NCBI GenBank assembly: GCA_026387385.1
Contig: JAPLLU010000087.1
Location: forward strand, 1-40,515
Direction: 5' to 3'
DNA: 40,515 nt
Source: Candidatus Omnitrophota bacterium
GTDB lineage: Bacteria > Omnitrophota > Gorgyraeia > Gygaellales > Profunditerraquicolaceae
The notes beneath the pieces were generated by a model that made no database searches, was not told the origin of the DNA, and worked only from the letters and a program-made list of their open reading frames with translations. Shown one piece after another: positions 1 through 40,515 of this stretch; the stretch's first letter is position 1; each line of letters opens with the position of its first letter. Made by a program: the position numbers and the translations under genes.

Positions 1-3000
1 AGAGTAACTGAAAGTCCGCTCACCCCTGCGGAAGAGTCTGAAATGCTTGCCTACTTTGCAGCACATCCTGAGTTACAGCCTGGCGATATCTTTACCTTGT
101 CAACTGGAAGAATAGTACGTATTGTTGAAGAGCCGCTTACCTCAGAAGAAGAGTCTGAAATGATTGCTTATTTTGCAGCACATCCTGAATTACGGCCTGG
201 TGATGTTTTTATATTGTCCACTGGAAGAATTGTACATGTGGTTAGAGCGGAGAACGGAGATATTATTTTACAACCCGAGACCATTGTTCTCCAACCCGAG
301 ACCATTGTTCTCCAACCCGATACCATTATATTAAAGCCCGATACTATCGAACTAAAGCCGGATACTATTATCTTACAGCCCGATACCATTATGTTAAAGC
401 CCGAAACTATCGAAATAAAGCCCGATACCATTATTGCCAGAGCCGATACTATCGTAGCCAAAGCTGACACCATCAAGGCTAACGCCGATACTAACTTTAA
501 AGAACTGCGGCCGCTAAGCATTGAGTGGACCTTAACCGGGGAAACAGAAGCTTATAAAATAGAAGAATTTGTGTATTCTCAAGTGGCGGATGAACATGGC
601 TTTATTCAGGACGCCGGCAATTATATAAAGACTACTTATATACGCCGAGTAAAAGACAATAAGTTCGTACTTCTGTCACTGGAATTTTATGATAAGGACA
701 ATCTTATTACCGAGGCCATAAAATTTGATGTGGAAGGCTCTGGCGCCATATTCAAAGTGGGCGGATACAATCCTATCTCTTACAATGATTATCTGAATCA
801 AATCAGTTCTTATAATAAGCCGATTTTCAAAGATACAGATAGACAGACCGTTAATCTGGGTGCACTCCAGGGGCATTTAGATGAAATAGGAGTGGAGTTT
901 GAAGGCAGGGATGACGGGTTCAATAAAGAAATCGATAGGCTTATAACCAGCCTTGATGTTCAGGGCGTAGAATCTTTATTAGCCTATAAGAGCATATTCT
1001 ATTCCTATGAAAACGGCGTTCAGAGAGAACATGTAAGATACATCTTATATGATGGAATCTATGCCGAGCCGCGTATTACCGTAGATGATGTTCAGGTAAA
1101 TTTACAGTATCCCGCAGGCACTTATGTGAGAGATATAAAACCGCTTGATTCAAGATATTTTGACCAAATATCTATCTACGCTGCAATCACTCCTGAAAAC
1201 AAAGTGACTGTAGACGGGACTAAAATCAAAATAGGCAATGATGTCTTTATTATTCGCGGCGTTACCTACTCTGTAGTAGCAAAAGGCCAAGAATTAAAGG
1301 ATTTAATTTTGGATGCCGGCACCATAGCAAATATAGAAGATACGCTAACGAATATGCAGCAGTCCGGTATTAACACAGTACGCACCTATTATCCGCCTAC
1401 AGCAAGCCTGCTTGATGCATTTGCCAGACATAACATCAGGGTTATAGTAGGTATTCCTTATTTCGATGACAGAGATAATCCCGGCCCGGATATCGCAACC
1501 GGAACTTATCGCGGATATATTCAGGCTTACAAGAATCATCCGGCTATCCTGATGTGGGAGTTCGGGAACGAATATAATTATAATGAACAATGGTTTGACG
1601 GAGATATAAATAACTGGTATACGAAATTGGAAGAAGCAGCTAAGACTGCTAAATCCATAGATAGTAATCACCCAGTTTCTACTGCGCACGGAGAAGTTCC
1701 TACTGAAGAAGTATTGAAAAAAGTTCCTTCCGTAGATGTCTGGGGCTTAAATATTTATCGCGGGAATAATCCGCAGGGTGCCATAGATGAATTCAGAAAG
1801 ATCTCCGATAAACCTGTATATTTGTCCGAGACAGGCGCTGATTCTTATAATACGGTGACAGGAAAAGAAGATCCAAAAGCGCAGGCTGATGCAGCAGAGG
1901 CGATTTGGAATAATATTAGCGCCAGTATCAATAAAGCCGAATGTTCCGGCGTTACCTTTATGTCCTGGCAGGATGAGTGGTGGAAAGGCGGCAGCGCTGA
2001 CGCCCAGGATTTCACAGGATGGGCATCTTCTTCTTATAATAATCAGGGCGTCTATCCGGATAGTTTTGCTAATGAGGAATATTGGGGCTGGACTACAATA
2101 GATGGTAACCTTAAAGAAGTAGCTCAGAGAATGCAGAAGGTTTGGGGAGTTAACGCAGGGGCTATTGAGTTGAACAAGCAAGAAGTATTATCTAAAGAAG
2201 ATGCAATAAAACAAGGCAGGATAACGGAAGAATATATTACCCCCATGATTCCTAAGGTTACTGCTCAAGTTGTCTTGACCTATTATAATAAACCTCAGCC
2301 TAAACCTGATTTCTTGCCTGCCCCAGGCTCAGTTACTTACCTCGTAGGAACTCGTACTGATTTTGCAGGCTTAAAAATCAGCAGAGGCTATTCCGAGGAT
2401 GTTTCGTCTTTCAAAAATCTTATAAAATTCGGAGTTTATTCTGAAAGTAATGCCTTCGGAGGATGGGTTTATCGCGAACCTGTAGATGTCTTTGGCCGCA
2501 CCCGTATTAAGGCAAATTACAATTTAAGCGAAGTATATATAGTCTTAGAGTTCCAGGAAACGAATATATATCAACCCAAAACAGCCTTAAAACTTATTAG
2601 AGACCAAGATAATCCTGGCCAATATATCGCTGTCCAGGTATTTACTTCAGAGTCAGATTTGGTTTCTTTAGATGATATATTAGCAGGTTATAACCAGAGC
2701 GATATAGATAATGTCAAGGGAGCGATTGGACAAATCAAAGCAAAAAAAGTAGAAGAGCTTGGTCCAGCGGACTTATTGTTAGTAAAAAATACAGTACAAA
2801 TTGAAGGCGAAACTTATACTCAATATGGCGTGCCGGGAGATTATCTGGGCAGGTCAATTATCATTGACCGCGGGCAAACCATATTTATTGCCAAGACATT
2901 TATAGGTATTACTGATACTACCTACGAAGGATATTTTATAGATAAGGCAACCAAGACAACGTTGTTAATGTTAAAGAATACGGATGATAAAGACAACGGC

Positions 3001-6000
3001 CTGTATGGCGATAAAGATTTAGGATATGTCTTAGGGCCTGATTTAAACAGGGATTATTATCGCGTAGGTTACTATAATCCTAACACCGGTGAAGTCTGGT
3101 ATCGTTGGCACTATCCTGTCCACATCTGGGGTGGCTATGTCTATGAAGAAAGAGGGTATTTTGAGGCATTAGGAAGCGAAGAAGAAATAAAGGCTTTGAC
3201 GGAAGAAGCTAAATCAGTTGCAGCATTAATTGAAAAGAAAAGCATAACGGCAGAAGAGCTAAAAGAAATATTAGGCAAGCAAAATATCCGGGCTAAAGAA
3301 GGTAAATCCTATTTCTATATTGATAAATCAGAAAGGATGACTATAGTAACCAAGAGATGGATTCCTGAAAGCCGCCTGCGGGTAGATGAATGGGCAACCA
3401 CGCGCGATGAGCCGTCTAAGACAAAATTTGCATATGTAGTGAACGGTAGAGAATTACTGAAATATACTACAGAGACTACAGAGACTCAAGGCAGAATGCT
3501 TATAAAGGATATAATGACGCCAGAGGTAATAGATGCTTATAATAAGCGGTTCGGAAGAGATTTATGGAAGGATTTAGAGACGATAGGTATCACGCAAGAG
3601 ACAATCCTTACCCAGGTAAAATTAACCCCGATCTTCTGGCAGGGGAGTAAAGATACTGGACTTCAATCAACAAACCGTAGCGGCCCAGCCAGTTATTTCT
3701 ACACCTTACCCAGCGATCCTTTGGGAAGAGAATTATTTAAAGTAGTGCCTACTAGTGAAAATTCCTTTAAATATACCATCAATATGTGGTGGGATACTAA
3801 TGAGGCACGATCACCTTCAGGAGAATTGCTATTAGGGGTATTGCCTAAGAGCTTTACTTTGGATAACGGAGAAATAGAAGTAAGGACATTCAATAGGGCG
3901 GAAAAATATTTAGATTGGTATAATACCGAAACCCAAGAGGTAAAAACAGTTAATATTCACGATTTGCCCGGAGTGAATTATGAATACGTATATATTTACG
4001 ACGTGGTGAATTCTGATTTCAATAAGCTCTTAAGGCAAGAGATAAGATCGCCTTCAGGAAAAATGATCCAACAAATATATGGATATCAGGTGGCAAGGAT
4101 TTTGAACAAGCTGCCTCAGACCATAGGCTTTGAAGTCATACAGTATAATCCTTCTAGTTCATTTGATGAGCCGGTAGTTGCCTTCAACAAAGAAACCGGG
4201 AAATGGACAAAGATATGGAAAGGAATTGAGTATACTGATAATCCTAATGCAGTAGTAATTCATCATACTGTTGAAATTGAGCCATTAGCTCCTTATAGGA
4301 TATCAACCTGGACAAGGACTTATGACCAATATGGTAGAGAGAGCAATAAAAAGGAAGTCATGACCGACTTCATTAATGAAGTTTTGCAGCAATGGCTCTT
4401 GGTGGTGGGAATGACTGTTGCGACGGTCGGATTTTTCGCTGGCCTTATTCTTTTAGGAAAGCGTGCAGAAAAGAAAGCCAGAGACCAAGAGCTAAAAGAA
4501 AAGGCCAAGGGAGTAAAGGGTGGCAACCGTAATCCTGTTAGTGCGCTCTGGAGAGAGAAGAGAAAAGAGAGAGTAAAGGATATCCTGAAGAGCTTCACGG
4601 ACAACCCCAAAGAAATCCCCGCTAATTTAAGAATAATTAATTATGTTGTGAATGCAACATCCAAATTACCTTCCACTTATACCTTAAAAGATATCGAAGG
4701 GAATCTTGCTTATCAGGCAAAAATAAAAGCGTTTAGAGAATGGCTGAAAAGGGTCAGAAAGAGCGAAAATACTAAAGAAGGCCAAGAACTTGAACTCCTG
4801 TTGAAGCAGGCTAAAGTAAGCCCGTTAGAATTTATGGTATTAATTGAAGTAGTCTATAGTTTGGCCAAGGAATTCAGATTCTCTAATCCATCAGTTATCT
4901 GGTATCATCTGGATAAAGCCCTAAGGATGATTCAAAAAAGCGAAAAGAACGTAATAATAGAAGAAATAAGGTCAGATCTAGAAGCTTTAAGGAAACTTAT
5001 CAATCAGTCTTACCCGGTGCAGTCTGCCGCAGGACGGGATAGGCAAGGCAAACCGACAGGCTTGTTCGCCTATTACATAAATAACTTGCCTAAAAAAAAG
5101 TTGGTATCTTTGGTTGTAAAATACATAGGCATCTTTTCAACAGGAAAGATAAGAGAGCTGTTCGGAAATCATATTGCTAAATTGTATAGGGGATGGCCCG
5201 CAGCTTTATTTGAAAAATATAAAGATATCTTATCTATGAAATTAAAAGAAAAGATTATGGAGAATCCGATTAGAAAATACTATGTTACTTTTGAAGATGT
5301 AGAAGATAGGTTTAACGGTCTTAAAAGTAAGGATAGTAACGATATAGATTTCATCAAGCTTTGGGATAGCCTGGAAGGGAAACCCATGGATTATAAAGTT
5401 CAAGAATTAAAAAATTCCGGATTAAAATTTAAAACCTATTCCGATGGCATTGGCTTAAGAAGATATTTAAGAAATATTTTCCCTGTTATCGTTCCTTTGT
5501 TGCCTTCTATGATTTCAGTGATTATCCTGCCGTGGCTTATTCCTGGTTGGCTTGGCTGGGGAATTTCTTTGGCTGTTTCTTTAGGCATTGGCTTAATACC
5601 TGTTATTTCAGGAAATCGCAGTTATTATAAGGCAAACTTTGGCAAAGATAGATTAAGACAAGAAAGGCCAGGAAAAATTATAGAAATAAATAATTTCTAT
5701 AAATTCTTCGGTATCTTCACCTTTGTTTATACCTCCTGGAACTATCTTGCCCTTTCTTTCTCATATCCAGTCATTTTCAATGCTTTAATCTTATCCGGAA
5801 ATCCAGTATTAACAGGCGTAGGCGTTGTCTTATTACCGATTATCTTTGGGTTCTTAATCTTAAGTATCTGGGCAATAGCTTACCCCGTATTAACTATATT
5901 CGGTTATTACCAAGGAAAGAAAGACAGAGTAGGCAAGATTAAGAGCTGGCAAGAGGCATTAAAGTCAACGACTATCAATGAGGCTAAGAAAGGATTTAAA

Positions 6001-9000
6001 GAATTCCTTCCTGTCAGGTTACAAGACCGATGGGAATCGATTTGGGATAAATTCTGCGAAGCATTTGTAGAGAGGTTATTGAAACAGTATAAGATTTCTT
6101 CTGGTGCAAAAGATATTTTACAGAGAGTTCTTAAGAATGGGCAGATAACCGAGGACCAAAGGAAAGATTTAGGAAAAGAGGTTGACGAAGAGGGGTTGGA
6201 AAGAATCCAGCGTTTTATCGGAGCCTGGTATATGAGAATGCCTCAGGCCTTGGATTGGGATGAGCTTCCCAGTCTGACCGCGATTATTACTTGTTTTGAT
6301 GAGCAGGTAATTACTAGTTTTAAAACGTTAAATAAACCTATAAATAAAGAAAATAACAATTTCCTTATTCCTTTAAATTGGTTTATTAGTAGGTATATTC
6401 TTGATTGGATTAATTTTGCGAATCAACAAACAGAAGATATAAGAAATAAATTGCGTGCCAACATAATTATAGACGAAAAAGGAATCAGAATTAAAGACTT
6501 TAATACACCTTTATCAAATGATTTAAGTGAAGATTTAAAAGAAAAAATAGTTGAATGGGCAGGATTACATTTTATTCGTCCTGACAGAAGCATTGCCGAA
6601 GTAAATGAGATATACGAGGTTTATAAATTCTGGGCAAAGATGGCTAATAAAACAGAGGAAGACATAAAAGAAAAACTGCAGATACTTTTAATTTATGAAG
6701 GCTATAAGTTTATAAAGAACAGTATCGATGAAAGTCCGAAAGATCAAAGACTAGCGCTTATCCATGCTTTGTCAAAATATTCATTTGCTGAAGCCTATTT
6801 GGGAGATGGCCCGCTTTACCGGATCAACCCTGAATGGACAGGGAAATCTTATTTGCAGCTCAAAGAAAGCGCAAAATATTTGAAGAGCGAGCAGGATGAA
6901 AGAGATAAATTTTTTGAAGTTGTCCACACTAGTTTAGGCAATTTAGGACCGGAAGCCAAAGATAAACCCGACTCTAATTTAGACAACAGAGCTATCAAAG
7001 GTAAAACTATAGGACAGAATGCCGGTGTTGAATATGCAAGAGGGGATATTGTGCTCTTCTTTGATTCTAATGCCTCAGTAAGATTTGAAGAAGCAATAAG
7101 AATACCTGCCGTCTTAGCAGAATTTAATAAGAGCGATAAATTGGCGCAGGTTTTATTTGGCGAATATATTAATACCAAGAATTACTCCTGGATTGCTGAG
7201 GGGATGGCTTTCGGTGAAGAATCCTGGACACAGGTGATGCAGAGGATTCTGGATCTGTATGGAGCGATCGGATTCTACGGACACAGCGCCTTCATTAGAG
7301 CTGATGCATTGAAAGCAACCGGATTTTTATTGAATTTCTATGCTTCTGAAGATTTATTGGGAGCTATAAGAATGTGGGAGGAAGGCTACGATACGACACA
7401 TAGAGAATATATCTTATTCGGTAAAGGACGCGAGCGCGGTTACATTGCTTCTCATACACCATTGGGAAAATGGTCTGAAGGTTCTGCAGAATTAATCTTA
7501 GGAAGGCAGGTTGAACGTTCATTAAGAAGCGATAAGCTTCATATGGGACAAAAAATGATGCTTATCTTTGCGCTCTCATTTTATACTAAAAAGCCTTTGG
7601 TGGTAATATTAAATTATTTGTATTTGTTCGCCTTTATTTTCTTAGGCATAAGTCCTTTTATAGGATATTCCTTTGGTTTACTTTTTGGAGTAATTGGTAT
7701 ACTTATCTCTCAGGCAATCAATGCTACCGGAATCCTGTATCTTATTGAGCAAAAAGGAATAATTAGAGGCTTGGCTAAGTTTATTCATCTTTTCCCCCAG
7801 CTCTTTGCTCTGTATACTGCCGAAATAGTGGTTTATGCGCAGAGGCTATGGAAGGGCATACAAGGAGCAACGGGATTCGCAATGTCTTTAAGAGGCTTAG
7901 ATTTGGAGTTTCTGTCTTGGAGTCAAATCTGGGGAACAAGTACCCCCCGGGTAATTAAATACTTAGATAATAAAGGAACAGTATTGAAAGAAATCGCAAT
8001 TGGAAAGATTAAATTTACTAAAGATGGGAAGTCAGTGTTTAGAGGCAAGGTTATTAGCGGAAAAGATAAAGGCAAAACAGAAGAACTCAATGCAGATGAG
8101 ATTGAGGCATTAGTTAGTACAAAAGGAGCTAAGTTTGATGATGGTAAAGAAGAGAAAGTAAGCATAACCCCGCTCATAGTAACAATTTTTGCAACAGCAC
8201 TTTCTACTGCGTTTGTATTCTCTTCTTCTGTCATGGTTACTTGGGCAGGAATTATAGGCTTAGCCTTAATTCCTCTTGCGGTAAGCGCAATTTGGCGTAA
8301 AACAGTTTTTGGCCTTGGTGTGAGACTGCAGATGATTTTAGCGATACCAATGGTCGCTTTAATATTTAACGGCGTCTGGTTCTGGGGAAGTATTGCCGGA
8401 AGCCTTATATTATCTGTTTGTTGGGTTGGGTTATTCGCAACCCTGGGGATTTATATCATAGGCAGCTTCATGAATGACAAACGCATCAGCTCCTTAGGCC
8501 TCATCGCATTCTTTGGGGCATTAGTGTCCGTAACTTATTTTCAATCTGCAGTACTCTTATTGTTTATTTTCTCTATTCTCAGCTTAGCTATTCCTCTTGC
8601 CTGGTTATTAATGCCTGTATTCGGTCACCCCAGAATACGCGCTAATTTTAAATATCAAATGAAATCTTTCCTTAATTGGCTGATGAGGCGTAAGGCGGAG
8701 CCGGCTGCTCAGCCAGAAACTCCAAAAGTAACGCCGTCTGCGTCTGGTTCTCAGCTTCCGGGATCTGGATCTCAAAATCCTGGTTCGCAGAGTTCAGCAA
8801 CTGAGATACCATCTGATATCCCACCCACTACACCGTTAAATTTACCCGATTTGTCTAAAGGGAGTTTCAGCGGTAGATTTGAAGAAGCAATTACTAAAGT
8901 TGATGAAGAGCATCCAAATGTAAGGTCTCCTCCGCAGGAGCCCAGCGAAAAAGAGCAAAGCCTCATATCCGGTAAAACTATAGTTATAGTTACTCACAAT

Positions 9001-30000: not shown

Positions 30001-33000
30001 GAATTGGATATAGACAAAGATAGAGTGAATATTGGAAAAGTTGAGGGAAAACTTGATGGCGGTAAGGAGGAATTTAAGCAGCTGGCAGATATTATTGCTG
30101 AGAGGTTAACGGCCGACATTAAAATTGATAATGACAACTACATACGGCTAGAAGAATTAGTGGGCGGAGAGCTGACAGCGGAATCAATTGATTTTTCTCC
30201 TGCTAAGGAATGGCTTATCTACCCAACATATGATGATAAAGTAATCATATATGAAACTGTAGGTAAGAGAGTTTTAACGGAACAGGAGCTGGATCAGGTA
30301 ATTAAGATGTTAACAGGCATGAACCTAAAGACAACCATTGTTCTCGTAGAAAAGGACAAGAAAACAATAGTTATAGATTTAGATTTTGCCACAATCGAAC
30401 GTTATGCTAAAGCCTTAAATCTCTTAGCCGCACAGCTTGATGAACGCTTGGTAGAAGCCATTGACAACATACACGATATTCCTTATCGGGATGGCAGTAT
30501 CATCAAAATGAAATTAATGAAACTGCCATTTAGGAATTTTAAATTTCCTGATGAGCTAATTAATTTCTTGGTTAGATTTTTTAAAGTAAGGACAGCTACA
30601 TCGCCGTTATCCAAAAAATCCCTTGATTGGCTGATAGATCAATACATGCAAAAAGAAAATTATGGCCTAGATGTGCAGTCAGTATTAAAAGAGGGCAAGA
30701 AAGAATGTCAGAAGAAGTTAGCTGCTATAGAGGAATCAAAAGCAATAGCTGCTGATCCGCATTTAATGCCGGAACAAAAGGTCGGACAATTAGGTGTGGG
30801 TATTATCTATAGTGAAGAAGAAACAAACAAAGAGCTGGATATTATAGATTATCTTTTCGAGATGTTCCTCCCAGAGAAAACATTGCTTACGTTAAAGGCC
30901 TTAAGTAAATTGCAAGAAGAAAGAAATATCGTTGAATCGGTCAGAGGAGATCAATATTACTTAGATTTTAATTGCGGTATCAAAGCCATTAACGAGATAT
31001 GCGAGCATAAACCACTATTGAGTGAAGTGGAGATAGTAGATGGAAAAGGCACAAGATTAGATATTGAGGAACCCGATGAGAAAGTATTAGAAAAATTACT
31101 CGAGCAACATAAAAAAGAGATAATGTATGACTTATTAGAACAAAGTTATCCTGTTAAATTCTTAATTTCTCTTAAGAATTTCAATACAGGTGAGAAATTC
31201 TATGGTGCATATTATGAAGGGCATATTGATGAGGAAGGCAATATCTGGATTGAAGAAGTTAATTTCTTGATGTTAGGAAGAGGTCTGTTTAAAGCCATAA
31301 GTGCACTCATCTCTAAATACCTTAAACAGCTCCCACATAATATTAAGGTTAAGCTGTACATTTGGGAATTGAATTCTCTCATTGAGCTGGCAGAGAGCTG
31401 TATTAATTTTACAGATACCTGTGAGGAAAAAATTAAAGAAAGGTTGTCAAATCAAGAATGCAAGGAAGCGCTGTATAATTTACGTAGCAATATACCTTTA
31501 TGTAAAGAAATCAGAGACAGTCAGCTTGCATTCGGCTTTGGCTCAGAGCGCAGAGAGTGCATTTTAACCATGTTAGATAACCTGTATGAACTTCTGTTGG
31601 CTTGCGAGAAATCGCCATGTGACCCTGATAAAACATTATGGGGGCATATCTACATAGACTATATGAATTTATTCAATGTAGAAATAAAAGCAGTTAAGGA
31701 TGAACATGGGCAGAAGTCATTGCTATTAGTTGGTGATACAAATCCGGGCAGGTCTCTTGAGGGATTAGAATCCATAGGGCCAGAACATATAAATCCGAAG
31801 CCAGAAGAAGCGTTTGACGGAGGCAAGAAAGAGAAGGCCAAGCAAGTAAATAAATCCCAGAAAAACGATGGCGGAAATATTAAGCCTGCTAATATTGAGG
31901 TCGATGATTTAATAGATGAACTGAAAAACAAAGGAAAAATTAAGATTCGCGCCAATGACGGAGTAGAGTTTGAGTTTAGATTAAGAATCTTATGGGATGG
32001 TATGTACACTATAGAAGTTTACAAGGGAAGGGATAATATAGGTCGCGTTGACTTTGAGCTGGGAGGCATAGGTTATAGTAGTTTTGAACGCGCTCTCTCG
32101 GATAATGAACCTATAAAAGTTACAGAGAAAAATTATAAAGGTATAGGCAGGGCTTTAGTTTCGTTAGCACTTGGCCTATCAAGAGAAGAAGGTTTAAAAT
32201 GCTTTATTGCGTGGATGTCAGTAGCAGATTCATTTTGGTTAGGTTTAGGTTTTGAAAGAATAGGTGATTCATCTAATTTTAAATTCGACCTGATAAACAA
32301 AATCATACCTCCTATAGAGATAGTCGCAGAGAATACCATCTATCCCATTCCTGTCCTCCGTGGCCGGTGGGAAGAGGCAACTGTTTTCTCCCCGCGAGGC
32401 TTAAACTCTAACCAGGTCTTTTCTTTTGTCTCCGATGAGAAAACGCTTACAGACGGTGGAAGGCAATATTCTCAAGAAACGCCTCAGGAGAAATATGCAA
32501 GAATTACACATAATTTGGATAAATTAAAAGATGATGGAATTTTAATATTAAAGTTAAGAAGAACCGTTAAGCCATATAGGCTAGATATCTACTCTGCTGT
32601 ATATCTGCCGATTAATATAGCTATTTATTATAAAAATAAATCTCTCTTGGATGTTGCAAAGATAGTAATAGAAGTAGAATCTGATGGATACAATCGCCCC
32701 GTTTACTTTAGAGAAGTACCTGCCGAGAATATTTCAATACTTAATGTTGCTTTAAGCAGAGAAGTAAAGTTTGATAGTTTAGCATTACAAAATATTTCTT
32801 ATGTTGAGAAAAATAGTAGATTTGATATTGCGTTCAGTAAAGATTTCTTGCAGTCCTTCGAAGCTCTTGGAATACCAAAATATTATGCATTTAAATATGG
32901 CTCTTGCAGATTTGTTGCTCAGCCTGAAGCAGAACAAAAATTATTACTTGATGGTGGTCAAAAAGATAAAACTGCAGTTATTGCTTTAGGCGGTAATGCC

Positions 33001-36000
33001 TTCTTTAAGGAGATAGGTGGAGAGCCATATAATAAACAGTTAGAGAATCTCTCCCAGATGCTTGAGCCTGTAGTAGGGCTCATCAAGAATGATTACCAGG
33101 TAGTGATAACCCATGGTAACGGACCTCAGGTGGGAGATAGAATGCTGGAGAACGAGCGGTTTGTTGAGGAGAAAGGTAATGTTAAACGCCTGCCTCTTGA
33201 TGCACTTGTGGCTGAGACTCAGGGTGCAATGGGGTATATGATAGAGATGGCCTTACAGAGGTTGCTTATAAAGGAAGGCCTTCAGCGAACTACCGCTACT
33301 GTGCTTACTCAAGTAGTCGTGGATAAAAATGACCCAGCCTTTAATAATCCGACAAAGCCAGTTGGCCCCTATTATTCCCAAGGGCAGGCGGAAAAATTAA
33401 TAAAAGAAAGAGCCTGGAAAATGGTAGAAGTCCTGAACCGAGGCTGGAGAAGATTAGTCCCATCGCCAGCTCCAAAAGAAATCGCCAGCCTTAGCGTGAT
33501 TGAGAGGTTATTAAGAGACAATTGCGTTGTTATTGCCTGTGGTGGCGGCGGCATACCGGTTTATAAAACAGAAGGGAAGTCTCAAGAGGGAGTAGAAGCA
33601 GTAATTGATAAGGATCGGGCCTCCAGTTTACTTGCAGTTAAACTCAACGCCGATAAATTTATCATTTTAACTGAGGTAGCCGGCGTTTACTTAAATTTCG
33701 GTAAAGAAAATCAGCAAGCACTTAATGAAATAAGTATCGCCCAAGCAGAAAAATATTTGTCTGAAGGCCATTTCCCAACAGGCAGCATGGGACCTAAAAT
33801 TGAATCTGCCATTGCCTTTGTCAAAGCTACCGGCAATAAAGCTATTATTGCAAACGAGAAGAGTATTCAAGACGGATCATATACTTCAATTGTAGAACAA
33901 TTCAGTCAAACTAGACTCATGGCGGATGGAGGCAATAGCCAGCAGACAAAACTTTCTTCTGTGATTGAAGAACTCAAGTCCAGCTCTAAGTTCGTGCGTC
34001 AAACGGCATTATCCTTTGTTAAAGAATATATTCTTAAAGACAGACCGCAAATCCACCGATATCCCGAAGAGAAATATTATGAATTGATTGAAATGCTCAA
34101 TAGTCTGATTGAAGACGAACGGATCAATACCAACAATATTCTCTTAGCTAATCAAGTGAGTGAGTTCTATGATTGGTTGATAGATATATTCGTCCAAAAA
34201 GAAGATTTCATTACGGTCATCGCAGATAACAAGTCAACTTTTGATAAGGAAAAATCCAGATTAATTGAGAGCCATATTTCAGGCTTCAATCTTTCCTTCC
34301 AACAGGGATTAATAAAAGAGGCGTTTAATTCCAAGATGGTTATCATCTCTAATGAAAAAGGAAAATATTCTTCAGAAAGCATAGCTAAATTTGTAAGAAA
34401 AGCTCCTAAGGACATTTTGATAGTTATCCATCAAGGGGCCAGTTTTGACGACAACTATATTCCGTTTATTAAAGGTACGCAGAAAATTATTATCCTGAGC
34501 ACATTTCCGCAAGGGCTTAAGCTGGCAGGAGAGCCTTTAGCTTATTCTATTTCCAGGAAAGATATTAGGGAACTTCTGCTTAAAGTTAAGAACCCTTTCA
34601 ATATAAATATTATTGATCTTTTAGTTGCGTTACACGTTATTGCAGAGTGCGTCACAGAGCCTATTAAGGAGGCAAAAGCCAAATTTATAGTTGAGGAGGA
34701 TGCTTATCAGATAGAATTACGCTCTATGATAAGAGCGGCTATCCAGAATCCCGGGCTTCAACCCTATATCCCTGGCAAGGGACCAAAAGAAATTTGGACT
34801 GAATTAAATGAGCTGTATCCTAGGAAATACAAACCTGAAGATATCGGCAAACTATCCTCTAATGAAAATCCAGAGATTCTTCCCTTAAAGGCAAGAAAGG
34901 CTTTAGTAGGGTTATTGCTGTCTGCGATGCAAGGAAAACCTTTTGATTACCAGAGAGAATTACAAAAAACCAAGGAGATTATCTCCCGGCAGTTAGGTAT
35001 TGAAGACAGACAGATTTTCTTAGGCAACGGCGCATCCGAGGCAGTGGGAAGAATTATCTCTGCCTTAGCTAAGGAAGGAGACACTATAGTTTTCCCTGAG
35101 AAGACATTTACGCTATATCCTTTAGTAGCAATGGCTCAAGGGTTGAATATGATTATGGTCAAAAACAAGATGAATCTTGAAGAGGGATATATTGATACTG
35201 ATTTTGAAGGCCTTTTGAAAGCAGTTAGCAATAATAAACCGCGATTATTAATATTAGTCAATCCCCGCAATCCCCTCGGGTTGGTAATCACTAGAAAAGA
35301 ACTGAATAGCTTTATTTCCCAAGTTAAAGCAGCCTCACCGAGTACTATAATTATCATTGATGAGGCGTATTATGAATTTGCAAAATATCAAGCAGGGCAA
35401 GAAGGCTGGGAATACCCAAAGACCATACGAGACTATATTAGAAAGAATGATAAAAACATTATTGTAATCCGGAGCTTCTCAAAAATATTAGGCCTTGCAG
35501 GTATGCGCGCGGGTTATGCCATAGCGCACGCCGATATTATTAAGAAACTCGAGAGAATAAAACGATCCTACAATGTTAACGCCTGGGCCTTGCCCCTGAT
35601 TAGAGAAGGCATAAGACAAAAGGCCTGGATTAAAGAGCAGTGTAAAAGCAACTATGAGAATAGGCAGTATCTTTTAGAGAACCTTAAAAATCATCCTCAG
35701 CTCGATTACATTAGAAAAAAGAGAACCTCAGGTAATTTCTTATGTCTATGGGTAAAATCCGGCTATGATGTTAAGGAAGTTATGAATAAAATTAAAAAAG
35801 AGGGCCTGATTATCCGTCCTGTTGGGGAGCGGTTTATTCGGGTAAGCCTGGGTGGGACCTGGCAGCAACTGGGCAGATTAGTTGCTTCTGAGTCGGATTT
35901 AATTCTGGTGGTAACCCATGACAAGCCAAAACGCAAAACCCATAAAAATATATCTTTACTTTTGGACAGTCATGATGTGTTCATCAACAAATTTATTATT

Positions 36001-39000
36001 ACTAATTGTTATTATCCAGGAGAAGAAATAGTATTTGGTGTAGAAAAGAAAGATGTCAAACCTACAGAATTCCAGTCATATTGTTTACTTAATAGAAGCG
36101 GAATAGTTCTGGTTGGTGAATACTTAGAATGCTGTATATTCACCGCCTTTAAGACTTGTGTGACACAAAAATTAAAGCATCACTTGAAAGCAAAGGTTAA
36201 TATTATTAGGGATGCCACTACGATGCGCCTGGAGGAGTATAAGGATAAAGACAAAACCGTCCCCGTTGTTAAGCGCTTACCGGTTGCGGCAGAATATCCC
36301 TACCGCACGGAAAATGAATTTAACACCTTCCTGAGAGAATTTCACATAGAGCATCCCGATATCAGAAAAGAACCCATAAGCTTTGAAGTTCTTATTGATG
36401 GCTATCCATTTTTTAGAGAAGGTAAAGGAGAGCCCGAGATCAGGCTGCACTGGATTTCAAGTACCGATAAATTCTTAAGGCAGCGCAGAAATAAAATTGG
36501 TTCAGCGGAAGCGGATAATATTCAATTTGATGGAGGCAGTAGCGCTGGATTATTAACAGAAGACGGCCGATTAAAATCCGATGTCTTAGAATATGTTTAC
36601 AATATCGATAAGCTTATTAACTTCGTCCACGATAAATCCGCTTTTAGTGAAGATCAGTTGCGTATGGAAATACGGAAGTATTGTAAACAGGCAATGAGCG
36701 AGAGATTTGTTAGGGCCTATAGAAAGGGTAAGATTATAGTTATGGTACCTGATCTGTCAGACCTTGACTTCATGGGGCTGGGCGATTACTTGGCATACAG
36801 TGGATTAATGAAAAAAGATGCTGAATATGTCCAGAATCATGAAGAGGAGATTGAAGAAATCCTCAAGTCTGGTACGCGAATATTGACTTTTAGAGCAAGA
36901 GATAAACAGGAAATACAGGCATCGCAATCGTTAAGAGATACAGAGATTATACCCCACAGACAGGCCTATGCAGGGTTATTTGCTGCTACTTTTGGCAAAG
37001 GCCTCGATCGTAACGCAACCTTAAATTTAGGTTATGAAGGATTTGATAAAGAGGCTTTGGGCTTGAAAGATATGCAGATGAAATTATACGATAATGCCAA
37101 CATGAGGTTAAAACAATTTATAAACTATATAGCAAGTAAGGATTTGATTAAGATTGAAGGCATGACTGAAGATGGCCAGCCTATTAGATTATATATATCC
37201 AGATCAGATTCTAAATCAGAAATATTTGCTTATCTCTTCAGGTTACAATTTAAGGTTTCCCAGGATTTCACTAAAGACAAAAAACCAATTATCCTTTTCT
37301 TTGCTCCAGAGTTGACGAACAATGCCTCAAGATACCTTTTCTTAGACCAGGGCGTTGGTTTCTGCTACGGGAAGGATTATTACGGAGAGATTACCGATAG
37401 TATTAAAATTTTAGCTCAACATAGGAACAAAGAAGCAGACATAGGTCAAGTGAGTTCCCATATAGAAGATTACTATAGCTTAGCGATTAACAGAGATTAC
37501 TTTGTTGATGACGATGGTTTGTTCCATCTGGAAGGAAAACAGTGGCCACTTATCGGAGCATTAGATTTTGACTTCCATCCGTATCTGGGAGATAAAGTTC
37601 TGACGCCGCAAGATAAGCTACATTATTCGCTAAATAAGGTTTTGGGTAATTTGGAACACTTCGCATCCAGGTGTGACGATTATACCCAGAAAACAATGAC
37701 TGAACTCAAAAGTATTGTTAAAAAATACTCGACACAAGTAATGAGCGAGGAATTTATTAGGGTAGCAAGAGAGGGTAGATACGTTGTGCTCTACAAAGAT
37801 CAACTTAGTTTTGATCGGGTTAAGGATTATATAAGGCTAGAAAAATTTGTATTAATGAAGGCTCGCGATATACAGAACAATGAAGATAGGGTATTAAAGA
37901 TATTATCTGAGGATAAGATAATTATATTAGATTGTAAGGCTAAGTTTTCGCCTGAAAATTTTGTACCGTTTACACGCCAAAAGGCCTATGCAGGAATCAT
38001 GGTTCCTTCAAACAGGAAATCTCGAGACAAAGAGCATACCATACATTTACCTTCCAATTTTACATTTGAAGATTATCTTAATCATCCTACTAAAAAGATG
38101 CTCTATTCTGAGGCGGACACAAGAATTAAAGAATTCACCAAATACATCCTCACCAAGGACCTTGTTAAGATTGAAGGTAGCCTGGGCGGGATTTTCCCGA
38201 TAAGACTTTATATCTCTAAGGCTGACCCCAGAGCTGAGAGATATGCCTATTTCTTCCGTTCGCAGTTTAGGGCACCGCTTGAAAAATTACCTAAAGGCAT
38301 GATGATGATGCAGCCATTAACGTTAGTTTTTGCACCCGAATACAAGACTAACGAGGCTTCCAAATATATGTTTTTGGAACAGGGACTGGGTTTGTGCTGG
38401 GGCATGGATTATGGCGGTGAGATCAAGAAAGGTTTCTTGACTATGGGTAATTACGAAGCGCGTAAGCTTGATTGGTTAGGTTTACACGCTGGCTTAAGGA
38501 TGGTTACCTTAAGACATAAAGTCACAGGAGAGATTCTAAGGTTAACACAGGTATTCTTTGGCTTATCCGGCTCGGGTAAGACTACCTACTCAACGAGTGA
38601 ATTAGGATTAAATGAGGCATTAAGAAAACAGTATTCTGATTGGGAAATCGTTGTTGACGAAACCGGACTGGTCAATGACGACATGCTCTATTTAGTAACG
38701 AAAGATACAGAATTCAATGGCAAACTATATAAGAAAGGCCAGATTGTCGGAACAGAAACCAATGTTTTTGCTATTATCTCTAAGCTTAAACAGAAACAGC
38801 AGCCTGAGGTTTGGGATGCAACCTTTAATAATTACTTCTGCTATCTGGAGAATGTGGACTACACAATTGGCTCAGATGGTTTATATACTGTCAATGTGAT
38901 GAATGATATTCCTTCCGGTAACATGCGCGTAACAGCGGTAAGAGACGCTATAAACACAAAAGCCCAAAAATCATTACCCTTGGAGACTCCATCATTTGAG

Positions 39001-40515
39001 GAAAAAGCTAGAATTCAATTTATATTTTTATCGCCAATGATTAACAATTACATACAAGACCCATGGATGGATGGATTACCTATTCAAAAGCTTACTCCTG
39101 GACAGGCAGCCCTTGCTTTGATTGCCGGCATATCTGTGAAAACTCCTGCCTCAACCCACATTGTAGAAAACTGGGGTAAGTCAGCTATTTCACGCTTCTT
39201 CAATCCATTTACACATGGAGACCCAGTACTATACGTCTCAGATTTTTACAACTTCCTACAGGAAAACCCTGATAGAGTCAGTGCCTGGATAGTCAACACC
39301 CGCGCAGGGCAAAAAATGAATGAAGATGGTTCTTTCGATTCAGCCCACAGAATTCATATCCCCCAGAGCGTGCGAAACGTCTTACACGCCACATTGGAAG
39401 GTTTAGGTTTAGAAAAATTAAACTATAGGCAACACCCAGTGATGAGAACGCTCATTCCCGAAATCAAAGATAATGATTTAAGCGGGCTTAAAATAGGCGA
39501 ATTCAGCCAAGAAGAGAGATGGCGTTCTCCCGATGATTTCCGAAAAAGAATTATTGTCTACGCCAAGAAGAATTTCCCTGGATTGCCAATAGAGGTACTT
39601 AATGCCTTTGGAAAGGAAGAACAAGAGGAAAAGAATGATGGTGGAAGAGTAGGTTACGGGTCTCAGGCCGCAGGCTACAGGTATCAAGAAGATGTTCGAT
39701 ACGATGGCGGTATCCCAATTGAAAAACTCATTGCCCACAGAATAGAAAGTAAAGAGCAGTTAGAAGACGCCGTCAAAAACGGTATAGAGAGAGTAGAAAT
39801 TGATGTGCAGCTAACCAAGGATAATGAGTTAGTAGCTTTCTGGGGAAAATTAAAAGACGGGTTTGTTTATGATTATACATCGCAAGAATTAGAAAAAATG
39901 TTAGAAAAAAATTTACTCAATTTAGAAAGGGCTTTCAAAGTTGGCAAGGAAGAAAATCTTAAGTTCAATTTGGATATTAAAGATTGGGCCTCTGAAAAAT
40001 ATATTGAATATGAAGAAAAAGTGCTGGATAAAATTAAAGAATTGATAGAAAAATATAATCTTCAAAATCAAGTATCAGCGGATTCATTCAATTGGGGTTA
40101 TCTGGGAAGATTAAAGCAGCTAGCCTCTTACGTAAACACATACTTGGGCACTGAAAAGGAATTCAAGGATTTAGAAGTGATAATTAAAGAAGCAAAGAGG
40201 ATGAATGCTTCTGGTGTATGGATTTATTCTGAAAATTTGTCCCTCGAGCTCACAAAGAGATTACATCGAGAAAATTTAAAAATAATCACTAATTTTGAAG
40301 GCCTAAGGGAGGAATTTAAAGCAGAAGTAGATTTAATAGTCAAAAATTTTGTTAACGAGAGAGAATCCGCTCCCGCCAGGCTCTTACCTGACGGCGGCAA
40401 TATAATCCTACCTCCAAGCACCACTATCCCCAGCCTCAGCGGTTACAATAAAGCCAACTTTAAAGGTAAAATCATCTTTATAAGAGTAGATTTCAATGTC
40501 TCAGATGAGACCGGC
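1..40515 (+). CDS. Giant multidomain membrane-anchored protein, partial at both ends (at least 13,505 aa, frame +1)
   Basis: Frame +1 reads RVTESPLTPAEESEMLAYFA... through ...RVDFNVSDETG with no stop found in line-by-line translation. The ORF track has no frame +1 ORF despite an ATG at 43, as expected if the frame never terminates. About 20 recognisable domains all lie in this frame. Confidence 0.96.
16..243 (+). repeat. Two copies of a 39-aa (117-bp) coding repeat, probably continuing upstream
   Basis: PLTPAEESEMLAYFAAHPELQPGDIFTLSTGRIVRIV (from 16) vs PLTSEEESEMIAYFAAHPELRPGDVFILSTGRIVHVV (from 133). Confidence 0.92.
262..492 (+). repeat. 11 x 21-bp tandem repeat encoding the heptapeptide I-x-L-[QK]-P-[DE]-T
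   Basis: IILQPET IVLQPET IVLQPDT IILKPDT IELKPDT IILQPDT IMLKPET IEIKPDT IIARADT IVAKADT IKANADT. Confidence 0.95.
1201..2148 (+). other. Domain: clan GH-A TIM-barrel glycoside hydrolase (GH2-TIM/GH158-like)
   Basis: IRGVTY, GINTVRTY, HPAILMWEFGNE (acid/base Glu at 1570), KPVYLSETGAD (nucleophile Glu at 1828), WQDEWWK, NEEYWG. Confidence 0.85.
4393..4455 (+). other. Transmembrane helix followed by a basic stop-transfer segment
   Basis: WLLVVGMTVATVGFFAGLILL then GKRAEKKARD. Confidence 0.8.
4720..8690 (+). other. Domain: FKS1/callose synthase-like 1,3-beta-glucan synthase (GT48) with FKS1_dom1-like region and two TM clusters
   Basis: Collinear FKS/CalS-like motifs: AKEFRFSNPSVIWY, TFEDVEDRF, KTYSD, TM cluster (~5480-5900), ERIQRFIGAWYMRMP..LPSLTAIITCFDE, GKTIGQNAGVEYARGDIVLFFDSN..FEEAIRIPAVLAEF, FYGH, SEDLLG, HREYILFGKGRE, TM cluster (~7560-8620), LMPVFGHP..FLNWL. 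Confidence 0.88.
8971..10104 (+). other. Domain: GT4 (GT-B) glycosyltransferase
   Basis: SGGVETY, WHGG, NRIHQYKG, CDIVVLPTYAEGLPLVLLEA (EX7E at 9817-9843), ETGVLV, MGKAGRQ. Confidence 0.93.
10594..11190 (+). other. Domain: protein-kinase-like fold (1)
   Basis: IGEGIEFVVY (Gly loop), VVK, GLWMMDNSVFKNYG (catalytic loop-like), FMDLG (DFG-like). Confidence 0.65.
11260..13250 (+). other. pgi: Domain: glucose-6-phosphate isomerase-like with an extra C-terminal SIS-like domain
   Basis: GIGG (11467), SKSGSTDET, VGGRW, EQNFNES, QPYVELGK (12631), GTGDQH (12961). Confidence 0.82.
13531..15720 (+). other. Domain: alpha-D-phosphohexomutase (phosphoglucomutase/phosphomannomutase-like)
   Basis: FSTAGIR, TSSH (phospho-Ser loop, 13999), DPDSDR (metal loop, 14560), VGFK, EESGG, FRPSGTDPLKSKIY. 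Confidence 0.9.
16066..16940 (+). other. Domain: UPF0489-like (arginase/deacetylase-fold) putative metallohydrolase
   Basis: PVLISENH, LVNFDLHSD, EIYWVVP, ISIDADYY, ITFSFS, GYLP. Confidence 0.65.
17014..18480 (+). other. prs: Domain: ribose-phosphate pyrophosphokinase with a duplicated N-terminal domain
   Basis: RFPDGEWYLRI, YSRQDKKFKEGEGVSA, LNIH, GPDDGA, DKVR, IIDDETSTGGT, VHG. Confidence 0.88.
18529..19614 (+). repeat. 81-bp direct repeat pair (18529-18609 and 19534-19614) starting two TM+HEAT modules
   Basis: NQSNKFYSFFPFTFLSVGSIPVISDII vs NQSTKFYSFLPLAFLSAGSIPVISDII, clearly similar at the DNA level. Confidence 0.88.
18730..19404 (+). repeat. About 7 PBS-lyase-type HEAT repeats (31-33 aa)
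   Basis: Consensus VRxxAAxALGELGDSRAVEPLIERLxD with near-identical DNA units; about 2 more diverged units at ~20090-20300. Confidence 0.93.
20536..21290 (+). other. Domain: class II nucleotidyltransferase (CCA-adding/poly(A) polymerase-like)
   Basis: LVIGGAVRSIFFDENVYDFDI, LEVD, LEDLLQGRI, ILRLLRL, GLEIDPQT. Confidence 0.75.
21343..21840 (+). other. Domain: zincin-like module 1 (HExxE ... H)
   Basis: AHVGRERNSIYI beta-strands, KILVHESVE (21724), EDAHKVALE (His at 21802). Confidence 0.5.
21961..23970 (+). other. Domain: fucose-1-phosphate guanylyltransferase-like sugar-phosphate nucleotidyltransferase
   Basis: LPDP..VRGNG, LHGGGQSSRNP..GK, YGDALITF, WGT, FVEKP, DTFGDLV, WLDTG, TARIFP, RLFS; no GHMP kinase domain follows. 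Confidence 0.72.
24100..24570 (+). other. Domain: zincin-like module 2 (HExxE ... H)
   Basis: RAPP, IAFNAAENIFYIHP, LWRHEYSE (24397), EAAHAAA (His at 24445). Confidence 0.5.
26191..26930 (+). repeat. About three copies of an unrecognised ~95-aa helical repeat (third internally shortened)
   Basis: Units start at 26191, 26476 and 26758: GxxYExxQKExxxSIExFI...L(M/V)xxYP...L/F(Q/E)xALxxLG. Confidence 0.8.
27001..27735 (+). other. Domain: protein-kinase-like fold (2)
   Basis: FDEGSEAIIY, VAKR, HIPQPLG, YYYIFVEG, AQNII, KIDFG. Confidence 0.65.
27742..27867 (+). repeat. 126-bp direct repeat (DGG linker + PGK start), copy A
   Basis: Matches 40390-40515 except for one synonymous change (ctg/cta); a diverged partial copy starts at 29143. 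Confidence 0.95.
27808..29100 (+). other. pgk: Domain: phosphoglycerate kinase
   Basis: RVDFNV, SHNGRP, LENTRF, DAFGTAER.H, GFLMEKE, IIGGGPKVSEK, DIG, YNGNVGVEE, GGGDT, HCSTGGGAS. Confidence 0.95.
29110..29205 (+). repeat. Linker cassette copy B (ERKSAPAKLLCDGGNIILPLSTT...YNK)
   Basis: DNA similar to 40357-40452 (ERESAPARLLPDGGNIILPPSTT...YNK) and, from DGG onward, to 27742. Confidence 0.9.
29371..29910 (+). other. Domain: Nudix hydrolase / type 1 IPP-isomerase-like
   Basis: RELCHIDGTWHRSVFVFV, QQRSFKKELYPGAYDISVGAH, AAARELLEEL, YQEEEV. Confidence 0.88.
31969..32310 (+). other. Domain: GNAT acetyltransferase-like
   Basis: IGRVDF, YKGIGRALV (acetyl-CoA motif A), ADSFWLGLGF. Confidence 0.7.
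32965..33897 (+). other. arcC: Domain: carbamate kinase
   Basis: VIALGGNA, THGNGPQVG, ETQGAMGY, DPAFNNPTKPVGP, GWRRLVPSP, GGGGIPV, EAVIDKD, GSMGPK. Confidence 0.96.
33991..34645 (+). other. Domain: degenerate HisC-like large domain lacking the PLP lysine
   Basis: IHRYP, NILLAN, IVIHQGA (in place of IIDEAY), STFPQGLKLAGEPLAY (in place of RSFSKxxGLAGxRxGY), NPFNIN. Confidence 0.72.
34726..35886 (+). other. hisC: Domain: histidinol-phosphate aminotransferase-like (fold I PLP enzyme)
   Basis: PYIPGK, KLSSNENP, GNGASE, NPRNPLG, DEAYYEF, RSFSKILGLAGMRAGY (Lys at 35482), SGNFL, IRVSLG. Confidence 0.92.
35893..36480 (+). other. Domain: isochorismatase/cysteine-hydrolase-like (divergent)
   Basis: IVLVGEYLECCIFTA and VNIIRDAT resemble the catalytic-Cys segment of this fold. 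Confidence 0.45.
36580..37560 (+). other. Domain: degenerate duplicate of the PEPCK N-terminal lobe
   Basis: Parallels 37640-38450 (QAYAG/KAYAG, KDLIKIEG/KDLVKIEG, PIRLYIS, FAPE, FLDQG/FLEQG) but has DYYGEITDS in place of DYGGEIKKG and no P-loop. Confidence 0.82.
37642..39612 (+). other. pckA: Domain: ATP-dependent phosphoenolpyruvate carboxykinase
   Basis: KSRD, YGGEIKKG, LHAG, FFGLSGSGKTT, VNDD, GTE, LENV, GNMR, FFNPF, VNT. Confidence 0.9.
39724..40350 (+). other. Domain: glycerophosphodiester phosphodiesterase-like
   Basis: LIAHR, VEIDVQLTKDNELV, NLDIK, SFN, VDLIV. Confidence 0.8.
40357..40515 (+). repeat. Linker cassette copy C + start of a second PGK domain, truncated by the window end
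   Basis: ERESAPARLLPDGGNIILPPSTTIPSLSGYNKANFKGKIIFIRVDFNVSDETG; 40390-40515 matches 27742-27867 bar one base. Confidence 0.93.

Follow-up and report, generated by a model that had tools for sequence, protein, structure and literature searches.

A short lineage-specific motif at the borders of enzyme modules in a giant Omnitrophota reading frame: candidate punctuation of a putative bacterial polyprotein

Do the products of the giant genes of the phylum Candidatus Omnitrophota act as one chain, or are they cut and, if so, where? This question, already put in the literature, is raised by a stretch of DNA of 40,515 nucleotides (nt) from a Candidatus Omnitrophota bacterium (GenBank assembly GCA_026387385.1, contig JAPLLU010000087.1, positions 1 to 40,515 of the forward strand), hereafter referred to as the window, which lies within a single giant open reading frame (ORF) carrying a series of enzymes. 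In the last 40% of the window the tripeptide Asp-Gly-Gly (DGG) recurs between modules of the size of ordinary proteins, and other short motifs take the same place in several related genomes. In a part of these giant chains, whole proteins are thus delimited by a motif that is conserved at the protein level and specific to a lineage, and this makes the published question testable. The most satisfactory explanation of the whole, in which translation would give a single polyprotein that is then cleaved at the junctions, is given a probability of about 0.5.

Programmatic translation of frame +1 of the window met no in-frame stop in 13,505 codons (nt 1..40515), and the longest frame elsewhere on the contig is of 175 amino acids (aa). 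The window is an entire contig (C45) of the source assembly (G000; 1.57 Mb, 149 contigs, completeness 98.1%, contamination 2.4%) and the ORF is, therefore, truncated at both of its ends. Exact and unique overlaps of contig ends join C75(+) to C110(-) over 141 nt and C110(-) to C45(+) over 113 nt, and the joined sequence keeps the frame and forms one ORF of at least 23,245 codons, which starts at nt 13441 of C75 and is still open at its 3' end. The window takes the following place in it:

1..40515, + strand: internal part of the giant ORF, residues ~9,741-23,245 (stop-free frame, contig overlaps)

A preliminary description of the window, made from its letters, had proposed a frame open from end to end, a true length beyond 13,505 aa and a non-repetitive mosaic gene of the type reported in Omnitrophota. 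All of these proposals were borne out, the last by homologous modules in Omnitrophota relatives and by the match to published features of Archaeovorin and multi-enzyme proteins described below. Tandem Repeats Finder (TRF) found few short repeats in the essentially non-repetitive window, located at 271-491, 16278-16335 (small) and 18747-19364 (HEAT). It is nearly certain that the window comes from the interior of a genuine giant gene of Omnitrophota and that this gene is of the known Archaeovorin or multi-enzyme type.

Eleven enzyme families pass the curated Pfam cut-offs in the window, in addition to HEAT repeats: Glyco_hydro_2_C, Glucan_synthase, GT4/GT1, Pribosyltran_N, Fucose_pyrophosphorylase, PGK, NUDIX, AA_kinase, Aminotran_1_2, PEPCK_ATP and GDPD. 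The enzyme mosaic of the preliminary description, thus, stands, but its number of about 20 unrelated enzymes does not. The membrane segments mentioned there correspond to about 18 convincing hydrophobic segments at aa 1461-6665, as called by a hydropathy scan rather than a dedicated transmembrane predictor, with no convincing segment beyond. Transmembrane segments are mixed with glycan enzymes and HEAT repeats in the first ~6,700 residues. The further suggestion of an operon encoded as one chain holds for the last 40% of the window, in which each of the Pfam-bearing modules contains exactly one enzyme family (6/6) and the borders of the carbamate kinase are those of a separate protein. This part and its DGG sites are:

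24661..40398, + strand: DGG-punctuated enzyme array with no convincing transmembrane segment (tripeptide count against shuffles)
DGG sites, aa (nt): 8221 (24661), 8507 (25519), 8997 (26989), 9248 (27742), 9715 (29143)
DGG sites, aa (nt): 10019 (30055), 10606 (31816), 10623 (31867), 10818 (32452), 10984 (32950)
DGG sites, aa (nt): 11309 (33925), 12177 (36529), 13213 (39637), 13235 (39703), 13464 (40390)

The window contains 15 copies of the tripeptide, whereas 3.19 +/- 1.70 are expected (500 shuffles, maximum 9), and all 15 are confined to residues 8221-13464. A second giant chain of the same genome, C116(-) to C7(-) to C101(+), comprises 13,014 aa and ends in a stop codon; it is not linked to C75-C110-C45 by end overlaps and may either continue this gene at its 3' end or belong to another one. 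This sister chain contains PFK, arginase, M54 archaemetzincin, iPGM, CheR, HATPase domains, HTH domains, HEAT repeats and 16 DGG junctions, as well as a response-regulator receiver that scores below the cut-off. For every 1000 aa, C45, C7 and C116 contain 1.1-1.3 DGG, as compared to 0.14 in 974 background frames of the genome, and an unbiased k-mer scan ranked DGG first among the enriched tripeptides of each of these contigs and of their pool (35 vs 8.66).

The sequence around the motif is also biased. Across 32 unique sites, the proportion of hydrophobic residues is 3-9% at positions -7, -6 and -4, 19% at -5 and 53-59% at -3 to -1, and the residue following DGG is polar, mostly N, K or T, so that the junctions, which are short and exposed, have the consensus polar(4)-[L/I]-[L/A/M]-[L/T/F]-D-G-G-[N/K/T]. 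No DGG was found inside a Pfam envelope (0/31 in C45, C7 and C116; 0/15 in the window), for which the chance is about 5e-5 by our own arithmetic, the envelopes covering 16-33% of the array spans. It is highly probable that DGG serves as a selected module-junction signal. A different use of the tripeptide is seen in a 3,328-aa ORF on C38. It encodes an unrelated repeat protein whose Ig-like repeat (..KLEYSTDGG..YPN..) accounts for 10 DGG, and these copies were excluded from the junction counts.

The modules of the array are protein-sized, and many of them are complete enzymes of cytoplasmic type:

27802..29070, + strand: phosphoglycerate kinase (PGK) module, aa 9268-9690, between DGG 9248 and DGG 9715 (PGK 277.8 bits, profile 3-379/379)
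29458..29847, + strand: NUDIX module, aa 9820-9949, between DGG 9715 and DGG 10019 (Pfam 28.6 bits)
32968..33855, + strand: carbamate-kinase-like module (AA_kinase), aa 10990-11285, between DGG 10984 and DGG 11309 (Pfam 97.6 bits, profile 1-234/234)
34849..35886, + strand: class I/II aminotransferase, aa 11617-11962, in the module between DGG 11309 and DGG 12177 (Pfam 129.9 bits)
38350..39462, + strand: ATP-dependent phosphoenolpyruvate carboxykinase (PEPCK) domain, aa 12784-13154, in the module between DGG 12177 and DGG 13213 (Pfam 84.3 bits)
39754..40284, + strand: glycerophosphodiester phosphodiesterase (GDPD), aa 13252-13428, between DGG 13235 and DGG 13464 (Pfam 38.1 bits)

The PGK module retains 100 of the 172 columns that are invariant in 10 stand-alone PGKs, including motifs which we take to be the signature of the family. 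Around the PGK, carbamate kinase and GDPD modules, the preceding DGG ends 3-17 aa before the domain and the following one starts 23-35 aa after it. PFK, arginase, iPGM, an HATPase domain and CheR of the sister chain are framed by DGG in a similar manner.

The borders of the carbamate kinase were compared with those of stand-alone homologues. A metagenome scan, in which the query consisted of a module, DGG, the carbamate kinase and the next DGG, gave 34 loci, all of them carbamate kinases with 34-54% identity. L107-L109 gave no row, and five of the 31 rows were dropped, L079 for a frame touching the edge of the locus and L096, L099, L104 and L106 for partial or short alignments, which left 26 full-length stand-alone carbamate kinases; wherever several Met residues were possible, the nearest one upstream of the alignment start was chosen by hand. 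Their start Met falls on query residue 168 (within 165-172 in 23/26) and their last residue on query 483 (range 479-489). With the flanking DGGs at query 164-166 and 489-491, the stand-alone enzyme begins 2 aa after the one motif and stops 6 aa before the other. The stand-alone proteins start with M-x-K-...-ALGGNA, and the giant chain reads DGG-QKDKTAVIALGGNA at this place. An AlphaFold2 model built on this alignment shows a confident fold that starts just behind the first DGG and ends ahead of the second (query ~168-470, with block means of mostly 82-95). Confidence is poor in the surroundings of both motifs, although low confidence outside the kinase is to be expected anyway with an alignment that covers the kinase only. 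By these alignments DGG would have taken the place of the stop codon, the spacer and the start codon that lay between once separate ancestral genes.

Relatives in the same family or order carry giant frames of 68,606, 57,756 and 42,913 aa, the contigs concerned being 196-510 kb long. DGG was examined as a universal motif and rejected, being not enriched in the frames G011_C8, G034 and G010 (1, 2 and 4 sites vs 3.1, 3.6 and 12.9 expected). The unbiased k-mer scan, however, brought up other motifs, at or near the top rank, in the following frames (observed vs expected counts):

G034 (Ca. Gygaella): DNG, 34 vs 3.5
G010: DNGG, in the context GSVDNGGS, 15 vs 0.64
G011_C1: SSP, 69 vs 6.1
G031: SSSP, 20 vs 0.45
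G019: SSSP, 9 vs 0.2

These motifs are spaced about 100-1000 aa apart. In G034, all the distinct Pfam best-stretch places (11/11, mapped by hand) lie between consecutive DNG sites, and these places comprise guanylate kinase, two NUDIX, GPI, trehalose synthase, NDK, a receiver domain, HPr and methyltransferases. Homologues of the NUDIX module of the window, with 38-40% identity, are located within the giant frames of G011 and G034, and the giant frames bearing such homologues belong to Candidatus Omnitrophota bacterium and Candidatus Gygaella obscura (phylum Ca. Omnitrophota).

A further motif, R[AG]PP, is strongly enriched (e.g. RAPP 12 vs 0.31 in G021) and occurs in G000 (C75, C116, C96 and at aa 5354 and 8073 of the window), G021, G011, G010 and G008. 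It resembles the known ribosome-arrest motifs of the SecM and ApdA types. The interpretation of RAPP/RGPP as isolated ribosome-arrest sites was, however, discarded, as most of the copies lie within a recurring conserved domain family (..LLGRAPPEL..W.L..TTDL..TQGNV or ..RGPPE..IFEGHEFYH).

A mechanism may be proposed in which the giant chain would be translated as one polyprotein and a sequence-specific peptidase would cut at the DGG junctions, releasing enzymes of ordinary size in the manner of viral polyproteins. We consider the odds evenly balanced as to whether the junctions are proteolytic cleavage sites. Several observations point in this direction: an exact motif with a preceding hydrophobic patch is unusual for plain linkers; the motif is positioned at native termini; among the proteins of the arrays are small ones that are usually free-standing; the form of the motif varies from lineage to lineage, like the cleavage sites in viral polyproteins; and peptidase domains (C39, M54, HExxH) are present within the chains. 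The wider proposition that the giant genes of Omnitrophota encode true bacterial polyproteins, from which dozens of enzymes and signalling proteins would be released at lineage-specific punctuation motifs (DGG, DNG, DNGG, SSP) replacing the stop-spacer-start arrangement, is held with somewhat less assurance, a little short of even odds.

Candidate peptidases are encoded in the same or the sister chains, namely an N-terminal C39 domain and several zincin-like HExxH modules including the M54 archaemetzincin. The giant ORF opens with a hydrophobic anchor followed by the C39 domain (Peptidase_C39, PF03412; ORF residues 219-350; 32-37 bits vs a cut-off of 22), the sole C39 match in the genome. Its Cys (NYCGVYAL) and His (EHFIYV), presumably the catalytic positions of the family, are present, and both columns are conserved in 8/8 aligned N-termini of giant ORFs. 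About 40 residues after the C39 domain all eight ORFs carry a conserved stretch E-A-K-x-[IV]-[LM]-G-[AG] (KSVWGG in G000, C75 ORF residues ~350-400; the others are from G010, G021, G031, G011_C1, G008, G019 and G020), which resembles the cleavage consensus of double-glycine leaders and may be, by this resemblance, a self-cleavage site of the C39 domain. Among 41 genomes, 30 C39 matches were obtained, half of which (15/30) lie in open frames of 5,000 aa or more. Since C39 peptidases cut after Gly-Gly, the domain is an obvious candidate enzyme for the DGG junctions, although the evidence is mixed. HExxH occurs 6 times in the pieces of the G000 giant ORFs against about 0.7 expected and 10 times against 1.2 in G010 (about 5-10x over expectation), with the M54 archaemetzincin signature HELGHTFGLGH among them:

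HExxH places: C75 ORF aa 5638, 5946 and 6654; C116 aa 496; C7 aa 4864; C96 aa 24

No HExxH is present in the window itself. The C39 domain is encoded on the same ORF as the window array, whereas the M54 and other HExxH modules are on sister chains; none of them is tied to the motif.

A number of points weigh against cleavage at the junctions and against the assignment of C39 to it. Cleavage is throughout a prediction from sequence. The first 8,220 residues of the window contain several enzymes and no DGG, and a comparable motif was not seen in 4/9 frames of the relatives (G021_C5, G008_C1, G011_C8 and, weakly, G020_C22). For a site-by-site examination of conservation, the metagenome scan yielded no sufficiently close orthologue but only stand-alone carbamate kinases; a protein-database search for a closer orthologue, covering proteins up to 5,000 aa, gave one weak match (34% identity over 6% of the query), and there was none among the proteins of 3,746-5,000 aa. 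The 40 strain differences listed out of 402 comprise 14 synonymous, 25 non-synonymous and 1 stop-creating change, a weak sign of constraint. As regards C39, the domain with intact Cys and His is also present in the SSP lineages (G011_C1, G031, G019) and in G021 and G008, which show no clear motif, so that the peptidase does not co-vary with DGG; nor was C39 found in G034, which is 94% complete and uses DNG. The context of DGG, hydrophobic at -1 to -3, fits the double-glycine leader consensus poorly, and the better leader-like fit ~40 residues past C39 points to a possible role of this peptidase in N-terminal self-processing alone. As a signal-anchor-like segment precedes it, the domain could face the other side of the membrane than the array. 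Prediction of a complex between the C39 domain (171 aa) and a junction peptide (46 aa) gave no verdict (score 0.01), which argues neither for nor against. The simple proposal that C39 cuts DGG is weakened by the lack of a C39 match in G034, the lack of co-variation and the leader-like site elsewhere, and we regard C39 as a doubtful candidate for the junction enzyme.

Several other explanations of the frame and its motif have to be set against a cleaved polyprotein. The main one is an uncut mega-enzyme, a membrane-anchored scaffold in which DGG, or DNG and SSP in the relatives, would act as a hinge, a docking site or a folding insulator. In the searched texts of the published accounts these proteins figure as giants anchored in the membrane, the motif resembles flexible linkers in its richness in glycine or small residues, cleavage is so far predicted, and in the motif-free part of the chain some enzymes, if working, must work fused. 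However, plain linkers seldom keep an exact tripeptide with a hydrophobic patch or place it exactly at the ancestral termini of proteins; the arrays hold small proteins that would usually be free (such as HPr and response-regulator receivers in G034), and several peptidase domains are embedded in the chains. An uncut scaffold is, on balance, unlikely, albeit to be taken seriously. If the junctions were instead self-cleaving or chemically labile, a dedicated protease would be dispensable. Asp-Gly and Asn-Gly are the classic succinimide-prone dipeptides, and [D/N]-G is shared by 2 of the 3 motif types, but the SSP-type lineages do not fit, Asn-Gly succinimide chemistry mainly deamidates and leaves the chain uncut, and the conservation of a hydrophobic patch at -1 to -3 speaks for a site that a protein recognises; labile junctions are accordingly considered quite improbable.

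The remaining two alternatives concern the DNA rather than the protein. DGG could mirror a nucleic-acid signal, either an in-frame Shine-Dalgarno sequence for internal initiation, as GAT-GGA-GG would contain GGAGG and the motif lies where start codons once lay, or a recombination scar. The glycine codons of the motif are, however, mixed (GGC, GGT, GGA, GGG) and GGAGG is present in only 3/15 sites, which indicates conservation at the protein level rather than a ribosome-binding site; a Met within a few residues after DGG is absent as a rule, and no stop codons end the upstream products. The Shine-Dalgarno or internal-start version was discarded on codon usage, and a nucleic-acid signal of any kind is barely credible. 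The 40.5-kb frame could, finally, be a chimeric join of unrelated genes produced by the assembly. The public runs, from freshwater sediment metagenomes, yielded the window sequence only in short contigs of low depth, none of which spans a long stretch, and the contig ends in a 105-nt repeat of an internal segment. Against a chimera stand the absence of stops in one frame over 13,505 codons while the other five are closed within 175 aa, the even GC content (0.37-0.45), the depth of run X1 in 30/30 bins of the window, although X1 may be the source sample, and the frames of 68,606, 57,756 and 42,913 aa in the independent assemblies of the relatives. The open frame and the far longer frames of the relatives make a chimera very unlikely. 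A polyprotein cut at its junctions stays the reading of choice, at even odds.

Viral polyproteins carry short conserved cleavage motifs and cis-encoded proteases, such as the papain-like proteases that cut after LxGG. By analogy, the giant chain would share with them the single translation product, the series of whole proteins, the border motif specific to a lineage and the proteases within the chain. It differs in belonging to a cellular bacterium, in its length of tens of thousands of residues, in its metabolic and signalling cargo and in that its cleavage is predicted. If the cuts are real, a cell would here express its central metabolism in the way in which viruses express their polyproteins. 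The C39 domain is comparable to that of the PCAT/AMS bacteriocin exporters (PF03412; PDB 6mpz, 'Double Glycine Motif Protease domain') in its Pfam score above the cut-off, its Cys and His, and the double-glycine-like site ~40 residues downstream. It differs in heading a giant ORF rather than being fused to an ABC transporter, and 6mpz is its only PDB sequence match, a weak one (E 0.04) in which the His motif aligns.

The closest published relatives are other giant proteins of Omnitrophota. The Archaeovorins (West-Roberts et al. 2023, bioRxiv 10.1101/2023.11.21.568195) are, in the part of that text consulted, likewise from Omnitrophota hosts and show an N-terminal C39 near a signal-like segment, many transmembrane regions, a divergent SecA DEAD domain, HEAT repeats, GT1/GT5 glycosyltransferases, glycolytic-type domains and secretion-system genes upstream. 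The present ORF has a SecA-DEAD-like domain (SecA_DEAD, 58.4 bits) on C110, before the window, together with an RHS repeat on the same contig, and two adjacent T2SSF (TadB/TadC-like) genes at 11690-13421 of C75, on the same strand and directly upstream of the ORF start. Farther upstream lie several ORFs with no Pfam match and, on the opposite strand, a gene for a TPR protein. The Pfam tables of the window and the sister contigs contain no dockerin family, and the Archaeovorins as described in the searched text are also devoid of dockerin. The Archaeovorin size class there is 30,000 aa or more, as against at least 23,245 aa with an open 3' end here, a shortfall probably due to the broken assembly.

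Very long Omnitrophota proteins have also been grouped in a 'multi-enzyme metabolic cluster' class (Nielsen & Lui 2026, bioRxiv 10.64898/2026.06.07.730766), in which, according to the portion searched, many distinct Pfam families tile a membrane-anchored chain and none is dominant, with NUDIX, kinases and sugar-metabolism enzymes among them and a largest example of 147,155 aa; the 11 enzyme families and HEAT repeats of the window agree with this, as do the further families in the sister contigs. The giant ORF of Ca. Velamenicoccus archaeovorus LiM, 39,678 aa (Kizina et al. 2022, via citing papers), is, as far as the citing texts relate, from the same phylum, combines transmembrane helices with glycan-active domains and is expressed according to proteomics. 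According to the accessible text of Seymour et al. 2023, many Omnitrophota have giant ORFs that exceed 20 kb; the same 39,678-aa ORF is reported there as well.

The giant ORF and the enzyme mosaic have, therefore, already been described for Omnitrophota, and the ORF alone would be one further example of these genes; the junction motif is the new lead. West-Roberts et al. 2023 (10.1101/2023.11.21.568195) state, in the searched text, that missing information on cleavage points blocked their analysis, and name no junction motif there, whereas a specific one is defined here; nor are junctions mentioned in the searched text of Nielsen & Lui 2026. The motif was not found in the texts of the main Omnitrophota giant-gene papers, a search that extended to neither the supplements nor the original Velamenicoccus paper; the domain maps and sequences that supplement West-Roberts 2023 and Nielsen & Lui 2026 may already show the motif or speak against it. 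No literature coupling Omnitrophota with polyprotein was found. On the polyprotein reading the motif would provide the first concrete predicted cleavage sites, and the specific neo-termini it predicts can be sought in existing proteomes. It also offers natural cut points for structure prediction and defines minimal constructs for cleavage assays.

The features of the window outside the enzymes of the array are as follows:

271..491, + strand: 21-nt tandem repeat (7 aa, 'PDTIxLK'-like) (TRF, translation)
1516..1884, + strand: glycoside hydrolase TIM-barrel, Glyco_hydro_2_C-like, aa 506-628 (Pfam 26.6 bits, cut-off 21)
4381..8628, + strand: membrane part with 13 hydrophobic segments, aa 1461-1970 and 2519-2876, on either side of the glycosyltransferase of the next line (hydropathy scan)
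7000-7626, + strand: glucan-synthase-like glycosyltransferase, aa 2334-2542 (Glucan_synthase 49.4 bits, cut-off 37.2)
9013..10035, + strand: GT4 / group-1 glycosyltransferase, aa 3005-3345 (Glycos_transf_1 92.8 bits, Glyco_transf_4 33 bits)
17467..18273, + strand: phosphoribosyl pyrophosphate (PRPP)-synthase-like module, aa 5823-6091 (Pribosyltran_N 57.6 bits, cut-off 25)
18553..20328, + strand: five hydrophobic segments, aa 6185-6233 and 6520-6665, interleaved with HEAT (hydropathy, Pfam, TRF)
18747-19364 and 20089-20328, + strand: HEAT repeats (Pfam, TRF)
23362..23745, + strand: fucose-pyrophosphorylase-like domain, aa 7788-7915 (Pfam 45.7 bits, cut-off 34)
40411..40515, + strand: terminal 105 nt, exact copy of nt 27763-27867 (end-overlap comparison, tblastn)

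The PRPP-synthase-like module also matches Pribosyltran at 26.2 bits, marginally below the cut-off of 26.3. The segment copied at the end of the window, nt 27763-27867, lies just after the DGG preceding PGK and extends into the start of the PGK module. This terminal repeat is the probable cause of the contig break and implies either a second PGK-like module downstream or a repeat-induced break of the assembly. A linker resembling the stretch before PGK is also seen after it, at aa 9706-9740.

Two assignments in the window were discarded, a PGM below the cut-off (22.9 vs 29.3 bits) and a PGI-like stretch read by eye that has no Pfam or PDB sequence support. The unannotated modules gave no notable Pfam family at E <= 0.5, and for one of them, of 584 aa, the Atlas structure look-alike score of 0.75 is uninformative. 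The aminotransferase module has an N-terminal extension, aa 11312-11620 (nt 33934-34860), with a faint aminotransferase similarity (E 0.0094) and a second high-scoring segment pair to C40, and that of the PEPCK module, ~600 aa (aa 12180-12780, nt 36538-38340), appears internally duplicated by eye.

Searches of the genome with tblastn detected no second copy of the carbamate kinase, PEPCK, iPGM and arginase modules. A separate PGK (C99, 36% identity to that of the window), an aminotransferase paralogue (C40, 30% identity) and PFKs besides those of the giant chains were found by the same method, and the Glyco_hydro_2_C-like domain has paralogues on C104 with 25-28% identity.

Among the read-derived (Logan) contigs of the public runs, several short-sided joints at 90% likeness are uninterpretable. 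Contigs related to 20516-40515 of the window, 90-99% alike, occur in runs X1-X3 from two studies.

Two more contigs of the genome, neither of them linked by end overlaps to other contigs, bear pieces of long frames. C96 contains another giant-frame 3' end, 2,221 aa up to a stop codon, and C33 is open from edge to edge (2,198 aa) and encodes domains of glycogen metabolism (GDE_C 370 bits, GH77, alpha-amylase, starch synthase) with one DGG.

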